Source of the DNA: Candidatus Latescibacterota bacterium
GTDB lineage: Bacteria > Latescibacterota > UBA2968 > UBA8231
DNA length: 64,000 nucleotides
Assembly: GCA_965208105.1 (NCBI GenBank)
Contig: OZ242318.1
Coordinates: 1,472,001 to 1,536,000 of the forward strand
Direction of reading: 5' to 3'
Shown here: positions 22,755 to 26,300 of the stretch, piece by piece
Layout of the letters: each line of letters opens with the position of its first letter
Numbering within the stretch: position 1 is the first letter of the stretch
The notes under the pieces: model-generated
Database searches by the model: none
Seen by the model: the letters and a program-made list of their open reading frames with translations, nothing else
What the model was told of the DNA's origin: nothing
Translations under genes and position numbers: made by a program

Positions 22755-23345
22755 TTGACACCATCGGATGCAGTTTTGATGCGGCGGGTAGCGGCGCGGG
22801 ACCAGGAGGCTTTCGCGATTCTGTTCGCTCGCCACAGGGAACGGGTGAACGAGAGTCTGCGTTGGGCGATCCGGGATCCGGACCTGGCCGAGGATCTGAC
22901 CCAGGAGGTTTTTCTCAGAATCTGGAACAGGGCGGGCCAGTGGTCGGGGCAGGGGTCGTTTCGCGGATGGCTGTTCCGGATCGCGAAAAATCTGTCGCTG
23001 AATGAACTGCGCAGCAAAAATCGCCGGCGCGAACAGCCCATGGAAACTCCTTCGCCCTGGGACGAAGAGGAGGAAGAACCGCCCGTTCCGGGATGGATGA
23101 TAGACCAGGCAGCGCTGGGGCCCGACGCGGCCCTGGAACGCGCCGAGCAGAGGCGGATTTTGCAGGACCTGATCGACGCCCTGCCGGAGGAAAAACGCGA
23201 GGTTCTTCAAATGGTATACGCAGATGAGGTGGCGCTCCAGGAGGTTGCCCGGCGGCTGGATATTCCGGAGGGAACGGTGAAGTCCCGCCTGTTCCATGCG
23301 CGCCGGCAGCTCGCGGAGGCATGGGGCCGAACCTGCGAATCATGA
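22755..23345 (+). CDS. ECF-subfamily RNA polymerase sigma factor
   Basis: Region 2: LAEDLTQEVFLRIW...FRGWLFRIAKN. Region 4: LPEEKREVL...EVARRLDIPEGTVKSRLFHARRQL. TTG start. Confidence 0.95.
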   Translation: MTPSDAVLMRRVAARDQEAFAILFARHRERVNESLRWAIRDPDLAEDLTQEVFLRIWNRAGQWSGQGSFRGWLFRIAKNLSLNELRSKNRRREQPMETPSPWDEEEEEPPVPGWMIDQAALGPDAALERAEQRRILQDLIDALPEEKREVLQMVYADEVALQEVARRLDIPEGTVKSRLFHARRQLAEAWGRTCES

Positions 23346-23360
23346 GACAGGAGGAAATTG

Positions 23361-26300
23361 ATGAGTCTTTCTTTGAAGGCGCCGTGGCACAAGATTTCGT
23401 GGGATGCATTCGTGCAGAAGGGATTGCCCGACCTGTTGGCGGAGCGGATGCCGCTGGCGGGATACCGGGTGGTGTCGAAGGACGAGTACGTCTGTGAATT
23501 GCGCCTTGGGATCCAGGGAGGTCAGGAGGTCTTCTACGCGAACATTCCCCAGCCCGACGAATGGGGCCGGTTCAAGGTGGACGGCTTTTTCCGAATGGTT
23601 GTTCCGGCGCCGACGGAGGTGGATCTCGAGCGTGCCGAGATCCGCTGTGTGGGCGAGCAATTGCTCGATTATATCGCCCGGCGGCTGGAAAACATGCCGG
23701 TTATGCCGGGAGGTGCTGTCGCAACATTGATGCCGCTGGGGGATTGGATCCACGCATTTTTTACAGACGAACCCACCTCCCAGTATTTGCAGGCGACCAA
23801 CCTGCACGATATGTACGTCCACCTGCGCCGGCTGAACATGATCCCCATTTTCGGCGAGGCCACGGAGGGGGTGGAAAATTTCTATCATCCATCGCACCAC
23901 GGACGGGTCTGTCCTTACTGCACTCCGGAAGGACCGAATCTCGGGCGGATCCTGGAGGTGGCTCAGGGGGCGGCCATCCGCGAAGGCAAGCTGGTGATCG
24001 AGGACGACGCGCCTCGAAAGCGGCTGGGCATCGGTGCTTCGATGGTTCCCTTCCTGGAACACAACGACAGCAACCGGGTTCTGATGGGGGTGAATATGAT
24101 GCGCCAGTGGATTGGCGCGCCTGGACCCGACATGCCGCGCGACGAGCAGGGCGCCTGGCACGACTATCACGTCCGATACGACGGCAGGGAAGCGGAATCG
24201 GAACCCGCGATGGTGCAAACGGGGCTCGAACCGGACGACCCGCATTTCTGGACGGGATACAACCTGCTGACCGCCTTCATGGCCTGGAACGGGGACGCAC
24301 TCGAAGACGCCCTCGTGATGAGCGCATCCGCGGCCGGGCGCATGACGCTGCCCGATCCCGTCGAGCCGGGCGACAAACTGAGCAATCGACACGGCTTCAA
24401 GGGAGTGGTGTCGCGGATTGTGCGGGACGAAGAGATGCCCAGATTGTCCGACGGCACCCCGGTTGAACTCATCGTCAGCGTGTGCGGTCTGCCGTCGCGG
24501 CTGAACATCGGCCAGCTGCGGGAAGCCGTCGCCGGGCGCATTGCGAAGGCCGAGGGAAAGCCGCTTGTCGTTCCCGTGCTCGAGGCGCCGAAGGACGACG
24601 AGATTCGCGCCCGCCTGAAGGCCCGCGGGCTCGCGCAGGATGGAATGGATTCTTTGACCTTGAATGGTGAAACGCTGCCGCGCCGCACCACGGTGGGGTG
24701 GGTCTACTGGGGGCGCACCTTTCATCTGGCCGCGGACAAGATTCACGCGGCGGTAACGCCGGACCAACCCTGCCAGGAGTTGGATGAGGCTGATTTTCTG
24801 GCGCTGCAGGAGGCGGGTGCATTCGGGGTCGTGGGCGACCTGTTCAACACCTGCGCCAGGGACCGGAGCGATTCCCATACCCTGGCCGGCCGCGTCGCCT
24901 CGGGACCCGTTGCCGCTGCAGCCCCCTCCCCCCAGTTCGACGATCTTGTGAACGAGTTGTCGAAAGCCGGGGTGGCCGTCGAGCTGGGTGAACACGGGGC
25001 GCGGTTTTCGCTGAGACGGGGTGGAGAGTTGGACCTTGCCCTGCCGGTCCCGCACCCGTGGCTGCCGGGACATTCGCTGATCCACGTGGGCGGGAATGAC
25101 GTGCCCGGCGCACTGCGGCAGTCGAACAGGCGCCTGAGCGAGATGATCGCCAGTGATGCGCCGGAGGTGCTGGTGCGGCGCGCCCTTGAAACCCTGTCCG
25201 GGCGCGTTCGCTCATATTGCCGCTTGCCGCGATTGAGATTTCGGGCGCGCACCTTGTTCAGCGGGCGTTCGGTGGCCGTACCCGCCCCGGAATTGAGATA
25301 CGATCAGGTCGGTGTGCCCGAAAAGATGGCGTGGGCCTTGTTCGGACCGTTCGCCGCGCGTACCGTGGGCGGCGAAGCAGTGGACCGGAGGTCGAAAGTG
25401 GCCAGGGAAGCACTGGATGCAGCCATGGCCGATCTTTGGGCCGTGGTCCTGCGCAAACCCACGGTTTCGCCGACGGCATTCGTGGCCTGCCAGCCGCTGC
25501 GCGTCGAGGGAAACGCCATTCGCGTTTCCGTGTCGAATTGCCATATGCTGGATATGGACTTTGACGGTGACCAGGTGGCGGTCTTCGTGCCGGTTACCGA
25601 GGCCGGCCAGCGCTCGGCCGCGGATCGCCTGTCGGCAGTCGCGCACCTTGCCCGGGACCCGGGCCTGATCGCCCGCGAAAAAATTCACCCAATGCACGAC
25701 GCCATGTTCGGTCTGGCGTACACCAGCATGACGGACGAAGGTCTGGGGCAGATTGGAGCGATCGTCGGGGAAGAGATCGAGCGCGAGGGATTGTTCGTCG
25801 GCAAGAATCAGGTGATGGCCTGGCTGGCGAACGCGATGGCAGGCGATGGGGCTGAAGCCGCATTGAATATGGCGGCGCAACTGCGGGAAAGGGGATTTGA
25901 AGCCGCGCGTAAAACCGGCGCTTCGATGAGCGCGTTCATCGGCTCGTCCCTCCATTGCCCCGATCCTCCCAAGGGCGATGGCCCGGACGTCTGGCGCGAC
26001 TATCCCGACGAGGTATCGGCGATGTTGGCGCAGTTTCGCGGGTTTGACGACGACGACCTCGGGATTCCCGCCCTCCTGGCCCAGTGCGGCGCGCGGGGAA
26101 ACTGGCAGCAGATCAGGCTATACGTGGCACCTCAGGGCGTAGCCCGGAACGCCCTGGGCGGATTCACGCCGCTGAAGCACGGATTTAGAGAAGGGCTCAC
26201 CCCGGAGGAGCTTTTTGCGCGGTCGTTTGCCGCGCGCTGGGGTCTGGCCAACGCCCTGGCCGAGATGATGGCGATCCAGAGCGACCTGGAAACCCGGGGC

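Follow-up and report, generated by a model that had tools for sequence, protein, structure and literature searches.

A reduced, single-chain RNA polymerase homolog encoded with its own ECF sigma factor in a Latescibacterota genome

Closest described systems

Bacteria are held to have one RNA polymerase (RNAP) core that is reprogrammed by exchangeable sigma factors, and we know of no single-chain relative of this core, be it the prophage protein YonO or the enzymes of yeast plasmids, that uses a sigma factor. In the present study we analyzed a stretch of 64,000 nucleotides (nt), hereafter called the window, from the genome of a Candidatus Latescibacterota bacterium (assembly GCA_965208105.1, contig OZ242318.1, positions 1,472,001 to 1,536,000 of the forward strand; the genome is 4.85 Mb in one contig), in which a gene for an extracytoplasmic function (ECF, group IV) sigma factor directly precedes a gene for a single-chain, minimal homolog of the RNAP beta and beta' subunits, here referred to as the mini-polymerase. 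Our analysis establishes that this protein belongs to a new and widespread family of single-chain, reduced bacterial RNA polymerases with intact active sites, and that one ECF subfamily is its genetic partner, in what looks like an obligate pairing. The two genes had been singled out in an earlier reading of the letters alone (the sequence-only reading), whose claims are taken up below where our results bear on them.

When set beside a canonical RNAP core working with an ECF factor, the locus shares the catalytic motifs, the bridge helix, the clamp helices, the two-domain architecture of the sigma factor and an ECF-type promoter. The canonical core, however, is made of beta and beta' together with two alpha subunits and omega, whereas here there is one chain of 1028 amino acids (aa). 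Because a normal rpoB-rpoC pair lies elsewhere in this genome (beta of 1264 aa, beta' of 1363 aa), the mini-polymerase is an extra gene. Compared with the canonical core, the mini-polymerase lacks the flap, most of beta residues 1-437, the N-terminal zinc region of beta', the rudder, the trigger loop and, apart from a short tail, all that comes after the bridge helix.

Among the described reduced enzymes, YonO of the Bacillus prophage SPbeta is likewise a single two-barrel chain of about 100 kDa with no trigger loop, flap, lid or rudder (PMC5467207). By its authors' account, however, YonO has few catalytic residues in common with multisubunit RNAPs (PMC5467207), whereas the mini-polymerase aligns over long stretches. 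YonO is moreover prophage-encoded and transcribes late phage genes (PMC5467207), while the mini-polymerase is chromosomal and paired with a sigma factor, a distinction drawn from the published description of YonO. The RNAP of yeast cytoplasmic linear plasmids (K2ORF6p/K2ORF7p) also carries beta followed by beta' in a single chain of similar size, with no lid or rudder, but almost its whole clamp, including the coiled coil, is reported to be absent, a second small subunit is needed, and its affinity is viral (PMC6211774). The mini-polymerase, in contrast, has kept the clamp helices, and its partner gene encodes a sigma factor. In that 2018 paper, a beta-beta' fusion of conserved regions was described as then known in no other RNAP (PMC6211774). 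Full-length beta-beta' fusions do exist (NCBIfam PRK14844 and PRK09603), with the same fusion order, and their models match the mini-polymerase at 9.6e-53 and 1e-49; these are, however, complete essential enzymes of about 2,840-2,890 positions, and the mini-polymerase reaches 179 and 168 bits against their cut-offs of 4632 and 5372.

Two further comparisons concern the pairing itself. The non-virion RNAPs of jumbo phages are, like the enzyme proposed here, two-barrel polymerases distinct from that of the host and provided with a dedicated specificity factor, but they are multisubunit and phage-encoded, and the factor is not a standard ECF sigma (PMC7598289, PMC5449584). The pairs formed by ECF factors and their anti-sigma proteins resemble the locus in gene order, the ECF gene coming first and its partner right after it, often with an overlap between stop and start codons, and in having an autoregulated promoter; here, however, the partner carries no anti-sigma domain and is homologous to RNA polymerase, with its active site intact. 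A description of the family was not found in the open literature, although one may exist in journals behind subscription or in supplementary tables, such as those on gene context in the ECF classification; term look-up in the portions consulted of an ECF reclassification paper (PMC7826278) and of a review of non-canonical ECF factors (PMC8999054) gave no mention of it.

Anatomy of the mini-polymerase

The open reading frame (ORF) of the mini-polymerase gives Pfam matches to RNA_pol_Rpb2_3, Rpb2_6 (8.2e-40) and Rpb1_2 (8.9e-14), all in one chain, and stays far under every full-length rpoB or rpoC model of NCBIfam (one such model gives 179.9 bits where its cut-off is 801). To define what has been retained and lost we used as reference the genome's own rpoB and rpoC, instead of those of E. 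coli, and aligned their products to a profile (A1) of 24 family members that are 43-83% identical to the protein of the window. Segments of this profile align to the own beta and beta' with E values of 7.5e-44 and 2.6e-39, respectively (segment map in Table 1). The closest relatives in sequence are bacterial beta (E 1.4e-47) and beta' subunits, and the AlphaFold model obtained with the A1 alignment is compact, with a predicted local distance difference test (pLDDT) score of 90 and a predicted template modeling (TM) score of 0.87. Its best Foldseek matches are the beta and beta' chains of bacterial RNAPs (5.4e-24; TM score of 0.43 normalized to the query). The end of beta (residue 1259 of 1264) passes straight into the beta' remnant within a single frame, in place of separate beta and beta' proteins, and the family as a whole clearly arose by reduction of the bacterial enzyme, in an event that looks recent.

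The catalytic motifs are all there. The double-psi barrel motifs by which two-barrel RNAPs are recognized (ED, GDK..RHG.KG and DFDGD) are present together with the bridge helix, and residues E315, D316, G337, D338, N342, R343, G345, K347, G348 and D733-F-D-G-D737 show no variation among the 24 sequences. Judging just from these invariant active-site residues, the mini-polymerase is likely to be an active nucleotide polymerase. The sequence-only reading had maintained that the clamp coiled coil, the docking site of sigma region 2, was kept, and that the flap, to which sigma region 4 binds, was deleted, and both statements are borne out by the alignments and by the predicted model. The clamp helices fall within the segment aligned to the own beta' from residue 263 (E 2.6e-39) and form in the model a hairpin of two helices (residues 583-597 and 602-619; pLDDT about 90). 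As for the flap, 20 residues lie between D316 and G337, whereas in the own beta the ED motif sits at 768-769 and GDK at about 1031 according to the family profile alignment; the flap-bearing stretch (771-1026, about 256 residues) is missing, and roughly ten residues stand in its place.

The reduction goes well beyond the flap. Residues 1-437 of the own beta have shrunk to about 125, and by the segment map the flap, the lobes, the zinc domain, the rudder and the trigger loop have all been lost. As for the elements of the flap and RNA exit channel (zinc-binding domain, lid and rudder), beta 771-1026 and beta' 129-262 have no counterpart in the profile, and a gap of about 25 residues falls where the rudder would be. 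The 49 residues after the bridge helix gave no alignment to the trigger-loop region of the own beta' and, because they are all that follows it, the protein has no trigger loop, no jaw and no C-terminal half of beta'. A remnant of the trigger loop in this tail was considered and not retained: the likeness is a weak one to beta' 1274-1308 (E 6.7), and serves as a lead only.

These results bear directly on a second proposal of the sequence-only reading, namely that the protein is a polymerase mimic acting as an anti-sigma factor or sigma sink. In the form considered here, the core-like surface of the clamp helices would sequester the sigma factor away from the host core and so act as a brake on it, alone or beside an enzymatic role. 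The invariance of the magnesium- and substrate-binding motifs across 24 diverse members counts against a mere sigma sink. A chain of 1028 aa whose catalytic residues are all invariant and whose active-site fold is confidently predicted points to selection as an enzyme and not as a binding surface only. Pfam, in addition, finds RNAP domains only in the protein and neither of the anti-sigma domains ASD and ZAS, and sequestration alone would have no need for two barrels, a bridge helix or a fork region. The points that speak for a brake have to do with gene order and with binding, and are given further below.

The genetic partnership with an ECF sigma factor

Relatives of the mini-polymerase are numerous. 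Of the 882 listed by a word-indexed search, the best 120 are nearly all 1000-1070 aa long, and an exhaustive search of 50% representatives gave 380 matches below 1e-30, made up of about 100 full-length clusters along with fragments and canonical subunits. By the names of their sources, the members come from Latescibacterota, Gemmatimonadota, Poribacteria, Armatimonadota (Armatimonadetes), Hydrogenedentes and Planctomycetales, and all those with a name are annotated as hypothetical protein.

To evaluate linkage we assembled 24 loci from species genomes, the window itself, and 80 of 513 metagenome relatives (36-57% identity); in what follows, L numbers designate related loci and G numbers the Latescibacterota species genomes of this analysis. 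An ECF homolog lies upstream of the polymerase on the same strand in all 24 species-genome loci. Where the N terminus of the polymerase and at least 650 nt upstream of it were present (80 evaluable loci), 72 have an ECF ortholog on the same strand no more than 3.2 kb upstream, the distance being at most 200 nt in 58; when polymerases at 90% identity are grouped into clusters, 50 of 52 clusters have it. The linkage to an ECF gene therefore withstood the outcome that the sequence-only reading had named as damaging to it, that homologs would usually lack the adjacent gene. Clustering of all ORFs against each other (104 loci and the window) recovered the polymerase in 99 sources and the ECF factor in 88, while the next real family reached at most 23, so that no third conserved gene surrounds the pair in this set. 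The largest cluster of all, made up of short ORFs that overlie the polymerase gene out of frame, was set aside as an artefact of high G+C content.

The same picture emerges from the phylum as a whole, where the polymerase is present in 66 of 168 Latescibacterota species genomes and in 16 of 49 genera. A profile of the ECF orthologs (A2), built from 39 linked sequences, separates these (at least 245 bits) from other ECF factors (at most 134 bits), with a few broken copies in between. Orthologs occur in 61 genomes, 60 of which carry the polymerase; in the remaining one (G156) the ECF gene lies 380 nt from the end of a contig, on the side where the polymerase would be. Co-occurrence, which had been suggested as a check on the pairing, thus amounts to 60 of the 66 polymerase-bearing genomes against one of the 102 others. 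Of the six genomes with a polymerase and no full ECF ortholog, G072 has a partial ECF gene and G140 a split one, in G135 the polymerase is reduced to a fragment, in G146 it has lost its N terminus, and in G149 its gene is cut by the end of a contig. G143 is different: its genome is a single contig, and it carries an intact mini-polymerase of 1047 aa (L145:3100-6243) with no ECF ortholog and with no ECF-type promoter upstream. In the 236-nt spacer ahead of that gene a sigma-70-like pair of hexamers can be seen by eye.

Where the system is duplicated, the pairs have stayed together. The 8.4-Mb genome of G071 holds two divergent pairs (L143 and L144), with polymerases 42% and ECF factors 53% identical and each ECF gene beside its own polymerase. 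In one of the two the promoter described below has a spacer one base shorter, and in the other it lies about 250 nt upstream of the ECF start. Across 65 adjacent pairs, moreover, the ECF stop overlaps the homology-inferred polymerase start in 30, an arrangement usual for proteins made in fixed proportion. Overall, our data show that sigma factor and polymerase are inherited together and lost together, in one operon.

Four of the ECF-less exceptions (L068, L069, L073 and L130) are near-identical contigs whose close relatives in the same cluster do have the ECF gene. In these, the ORF that runs into the polymerase start ends in the same short acidic tail that the ECF factor of relatives such as L082 has; this persistence suggests that the gene was disrupted by an insertion, and not that it was never present. 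Relaxed selection in the ECF-less copies was also considered: the ratio of nonsynonymous to synonymous substitution rates (dN/dS) is 0.146-0.159 for G143 and likewise for the truncated copy of G146, against 0.142-0.168 for three ECF-bearing copies, these being pairwise values that are blind to recent events.

Such exceptions raise the question of whether the pair might be what is left of the transcription unit of a mobile element or prophage, or a decaying relic with no function. The distribution is indeed patchy and extends over several phyla, the genomic neighborhoods vary, decayed copies exist (the G135 fragment, the truncated G146 copy, and the broken ECF genes of G140 and G072), and an IS200-like transposase adjoins one ECF-less copy. 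Full-length open frames are nonetheless the rule, and dN/dS is about 0.15 among five polymerase copies. Among 40 pattern matches in IMG/VR contigs no member was confirmed, none of 50,697 phage and 72,556 plasmid records covers at least 80% of the query (the partial matches being canonical rpoB and rpoC), PADLOC has no match for the polymerase, and ORF clustering of the related loci showed no conserved phage genes near the pair. A phage, plasmid or defence origin was rejected on these empty results, the PHROG matches being full-size beta-like and beta'-like families, and we consider a relic highly improbable.

Turning to the sigma factor, its 196 aa comprise regions 2 and 4 and nothing that matches region 3 or 1.1, as expected for the ECF family: Pfam finds Sigma70_r2 (3.8e-15, residues 23-91) and Sigma70_r4_2 (1.4e-14, residues 134-186), and the NCBIfam model TIGR02937, whose cut-off is 42.9 bits, is matched with 112.7. 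A solved sigma-E is matched end to end (9.3e-20). No named equivalog or subgroup was reached in NCBIfam, where the best model (PRK12513) gave 130.9 bits against a cut-off of 206. What the linked factors have in common, in an alignment of 39 orthologs, is a distinctive linker with an acidic run followed by conserved P-G-W-M-x-D and L-G-P-D motifs. A cognate anti-sigma gene, typical of ECF factors if not universal, was found neither beside the gene in the window nor conserved in the 104 loci.

Upstream of the ECF gene lies a promoter that the author of the sequence-only reading had not noticed; a motif search upstream of homologous operons was among the checks proposed there. By aligning by eye the 130 nt that precede 46 diverse ECF genes, we found TGAAC(C/T)-N13-(C/T)GGTGTC in 45 of them, with identical spacing in 44; L021 has a spacer one base shorter and L089 a variant -10 element. 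The -10 element mostly ends 15-40 nt ahead of the start codon, and a T-rich stretch (matrix positions 7-9) comes right after the -35 element. In general, ECF promoters have AAC in the -35 element, a GT-rich or CGT-like -10 element, a spacer of 14-17 bp and a T-rich stretch (PMC5758882). The motif found here likewise carries AAC at -35 and a CGT-like -10, its spacer falls in that range, and it would be recognized by the sigma factor encoded next to it.

This promoter is remarkably confined to the operon. A weight-matrix scan of the 104 loci (1.29 Mb, both strands) gave exactly one match in 76 loci and never two; every match is on the coding strand, none being on the opposite one, and lies shortly before the ECF gene or, where this is missing, before the polymerase gene. 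In three loci without an ECF gene (L085, L086 and L123) the promoter stands directly ahead of the polymerase gene. In the genome of the window, the site of the operon scores 22.5, and the two best matches are this site and 314469-314494 (minus strand, outside the window), which is the only other exact copy of the pattern; as it falls inside a coding frame of 358 aa, and with about 0.2 exact matches expected by chance from base composition, it was taken as a chance occurrence. Of the 168 genomes from the phylum, 88 contain the exact pattern, as do 30 of the 31 in one family (f4), where it stands directly upstream of the ECF coordinates, whereas a control pattern with a spacer one base longer occurs in 48 and 14, respectively, and never at the operon of this genome. 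A larger regulon was thus rejected, the genome scan having returned the own site and the in-frame site alone, with degenerate sites outside its reach. The same-genus genome revealed no second target that is conserved, and the extra exact sites common to G009 and G010 are antisense inside a long ORF for a TPR protein. The ECF factor presumably recognizes the promoter of its own operon, which would amount to positive autoregulation; the sharply conserved ECF-type promoter would make the unit self-activating, with no other evident target.

The operon also accepts cargo, as shown by an ABC exporter gene (586-620 aa) inserted between the ECF and polymerase genes of nine loci (L006-L008, L010, L012, L016-L018 and L020) with no second promoter copy, none having been found where cargo genes split the pair. 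Both copies submitted to Pfam (L012:6165-7958 and L016:6002-7762) match ABC_membrane and ABC_tran. L016 is the same-genus genome (it matches G107), and the window has no exporter. In two other loci (L009:6707-7897 and L015:6783-7928) a protein of 381-396 aa with no Pfam family occupies the same place, and the gap of 1298 nt in L046 is the same as in these two. A subclade of L012 (3420-5394) and 15-16 other Latescibacterota loci has two genes directly upstream of the ECF promoter, the first for a protein of 345 aa that has a DksA/TraR C4 zinc finger at its N terminus (Pfam 1.1e-9) and the second for a protein of 315 aa with no known family; neither was found in the genome of the window when these were used as queries. 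As DksA/TraR fingers are known from RNA-polymerase-binding proteins, this neighborhood may not be accidental.

In the window itself, the gene layout given in the sequence-only reading, with the ECF stop at 23345 and the ATG of the polymerase 15 nt further on, was reproduced in all its coordinates from the ORF list and the sequence (Table 1), and so was the lack of an adjacent anti-sigma gene: both flanking genes are metabolic, and no third family is kept around the pair. The two genes happen to share one reading frame, split by one TGA and five codons. Since this holds for no more than 11 of 65 adjacent pairs, the idea of a fusion made by programmed read-through was dropped, and the shared frame is probably due to chance. 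Scans of 22500-26700 and 22000-27500 returned no sigma-70-like promoter, intrinsic terminator or Rfam family. The flanks (18975-22625 and 26507-32656) are unrelated to transcription and encode, besides the two enzymes of Table 1, an Omp85-like protein and an Ldh_2 dehydrogenase, as well as a 390-aa protein with no Pfam match, a di-haem oxidoreductase and a Rieske protein; an ORF of 738 aa is present at 30440-32656. Sponge and marine metagenome runs hold the stretch (eight entries with at least half of the sampled words; nine studies overall). Eight short contigs of 168-378 nt from a single sponge metatranscriptome library (90-99% alike) fall on both genes between 22841 and 26437 and leave parts of the stretch and both flanks uncovered, which is weakly compatible with expression, as DNA carry-over is possible.

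Table 1. Features of the locus and segment map of the mini-polymerase. Plain numbers are positions in the window; profile numbers refer to the A1 profile, and counterparts are residues of the genome's own subunits.
Feature	Location	Strand	Counterpart	Remarks
-35 element TGAACC	22709-22714	+		conserved motif upstream of the ECF gene
-10 element CGGTGTC	22728-22734	+		ends 20 nt before the TTG start
Purine-rich stretch AGGGGGG, putative ribosome-binding site	22744-22750	+		relatives have AGGAGG or GGAGG in the same place
ECF (group IV) sigma factor gene	22755-23345	+		196 aa; TTG start; TGA stop 23343-23345
Ribosome-binding site GGAGGA of the polymerase gene	23350-23355	+		inside the 15-nt spacer
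Single-chain minimal beta-beta' RNA polymerase homolog	23361-26447	+		1028 aa; ATG start
Beta-type motifs ED (E315 D316, from 24303) and GDK..RHG.KG (G337-G348, from 24369)	24303-24404	+		invariant in 24 sequences
Clamp helices of beta', residues 583-619	25107-25217	+	beta' from 263	
Magnesium-binding motif DFDGD of beta' (D733-D737)	25557-25571	+	own beta' motif	invariant in 24 of 24
Bridge helix, residues 948-979	26202-26297	+		helix in the model; followed by a conserved 49-residue C-terminal tail
Segment	profile 125-204		beta 438-527	fork region
Segment	profile 207-266		beta 594-653	
Segment	profile 285-319		beta 736-770	ED motif
Segment	profile 329-545		beta 1027-1259	GDK..RHG.KG up to the end of beta
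Segment	profile 549-583		beta' 94-128	weak match
Segment	profile 583-763		beta' 263-478	E 2.6e-39; clamp helices and DFDGD barrel; gap of about 25 residues at the rudder position
Segment	profile 882-979		beta' 667-773	F-loop and bridge helix
Enolase-superfamily enzyme, upstream flank	21327-22625	-		Pfam scan
Xylose-isomerase-like TIM barrel, downstream flank	26507-27274	-		Pfam scan

Which core the sigma factor serves

We regard a sigma-dependent mini-holoenzyme as the most likely mechanism, with a probability of roughly 0.4, on account of the retained docking site for sigma region 2, the cognate pairing, the translational coupling and a weak interface score. The locus would then be a self-contained, self-activating module in which a promoter is joined with an ECF factor dedicated to it and with a minimal RNA polymerase of one chain. 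The sigma factor, activating its own operon through the promoter, would dock with its region 2 on the retained clamp helices, and the two proteins together would form a holoenzyme that initiates at the ECF promoter with no need for the host core. Initial expression might come from the host core carrying the same ECF factor, or from read-through, and region 4 would have to be held at the -35 element by a contact other than the flap tip, for which the linker motif of the ECF factor and the N-terminal remnant of beta are candidates.

Structure prediction of the complex, one of the checks that had been suggested for the pair, was carried out on residues 214-1028 of the polymerase and residues 8-190 of the ECF factor, with an alignment supplied for both. 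The interaction prediction score from aligned errors (ipSAE) was 0.37 (0.37, 0.37 and 0.39 in the individual runs) against 0.00 in all three controls, with at least 55% contact agreement between runs and a partner pLDDT of at least 63. Of 80 solved complexes, 58 attain the mark used for such scores, as do 2 of 110 mismatched pairs, and scores up to 0.60 are found in just 7 of those 80 complexes and in both of the mismatches that pass. The prediction thus weakly supports an interface between the mini-polymerase and the ECF factor, which would direct initiation on an RNA polymerase core; because solved complexes of sigma factors with the core exist, and alignments were supplied, the score may reflect likeness to these and not binding of the pair's own.

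The clamp helices are the canonical docking site of sigma region 2, and their survival in a reduction that removed nearly all other peripheral parts is a point in favor of binding, as is the distinctive linker of the linked ECF factors. They are moreover dispensable for minimal catalysis, given that the mini-RNAP of yeast linear plasmids is reported to do without them (PMC6211774). Several observations, on the other hand, weigh against a mini-holoenzyme or are neutral. The surface of the clamp helices is not particularly conserved (0.52 against 0.58 overall), only core positions being so, and an analysis of mutual information between ECF factor and polymerase with average product correction (69 pairs, 42 effective sequences), which is underpowered, gave top pairs that are scattered and not enriched in the clamp helices. 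In canonical enzymes, the clamp helices also bind NusG. The flap, which is the usual anchor of region 4, is gone, with no substitute site identified. The promoter is of the ordinary ECF type, and the factor aligns over its full length with an ordinary sigma-E. G143 keeps an intact polymerase with neither ECF ortholog nor promoter, at a dN/dS of about 0.15 like that of its relatives, and the sole recognizable promoter of the module is its own, so that it has no evident output.

With promoter and sigma factor both canonical, the ECF factor could in fact work with the host core alone and simply switch on the mini-polymerase, which would then act independently of sigma factors, in promoter-independent or structure-dependent RNA synthesis, in primer making, or on RNA or single-stranded templates, its clamp helices being kept for NusG or for structure. 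Several findings fit such a scheme: region 4 of the factor fully covers the generic Pfam model while its usual dock is absent from the mini-polymerase, the polymerase of G143 is intact with no ECF factor, there is no covariation signal and the complex score is just weak. YonO, furthermore, works with no known sigma factor, its authors calling the factor requirements unknown (PMC5467207). This explanation, however, leaves unaccounted for the survival of the clamp helices, the overlap of stop and start seen in 30 of 65 pairs, the fact that the two genes are present or lost together almost without exception, and the persistence of duplicated systems as cognate pairs, and an ECF factor with no anti-sigma and a single target would still need an input signal. 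We deem it less likely than the mini-holoenzyme, and the most serious of the alternatives.

The features that recall anti-sigma genes, that is, a polymerase gene placed directly 3' of the ECF gene and frequently overlapping its stop, are those that would suit the brake discussed above, as are the lack of any anti-sigma gene, the retained docking element for region 2, and the interface score itself (0.37 against 0.00); a self-activating ECF factor, in addition, needs a brake. In view of the invariant catalytic residues, mimicry of the core is possible as an added role and not as the whole story, and as the explanation of the locus we judge it improbable. Of the two proposals of the sequence-only reading, that of a two-gene orthogonal transcription system fares better, with the reservations that binding is weakly predicted and that, given the canonical promoter, the sigma factor may work with the host core. 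In its strongest form, the mini-holoenzyme would be a complete natural orthogonal transcription system of about 3.7 kb, in which a chain with neither flap nor trigger loop has the ECF factor as its sole initiation factor, operates independently of the host core and relies on a new contact between region 4 or the linker and the polymerase; this we put forward tentatively.

If the mini-holoenzyme is real, it would be the first sigma-dependent single-chain RNA polymerase and a minimal sigma-dependent transcription machine, it would show which core parts are dispensable for promoter-specific initiation, and it would provide synthetic biology with a compact orthogonal set of polymerase, sigma factor and promoter. 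The module lends itself to clean tests, as all it comprises is a pair of genes and a single promoter whose consensus is sharply defined. Should the ECF factor only switch the enzyme on, the question would become what role a second, stripped-down polymerase plays in the cell. If, instead, the system is truly orthogonal, the surfaces that many inhibitors and regulators of the host enzyme use would be absent from it, and the mini-polymerase might offer these bacteria a protected or emergency channel of transcription.

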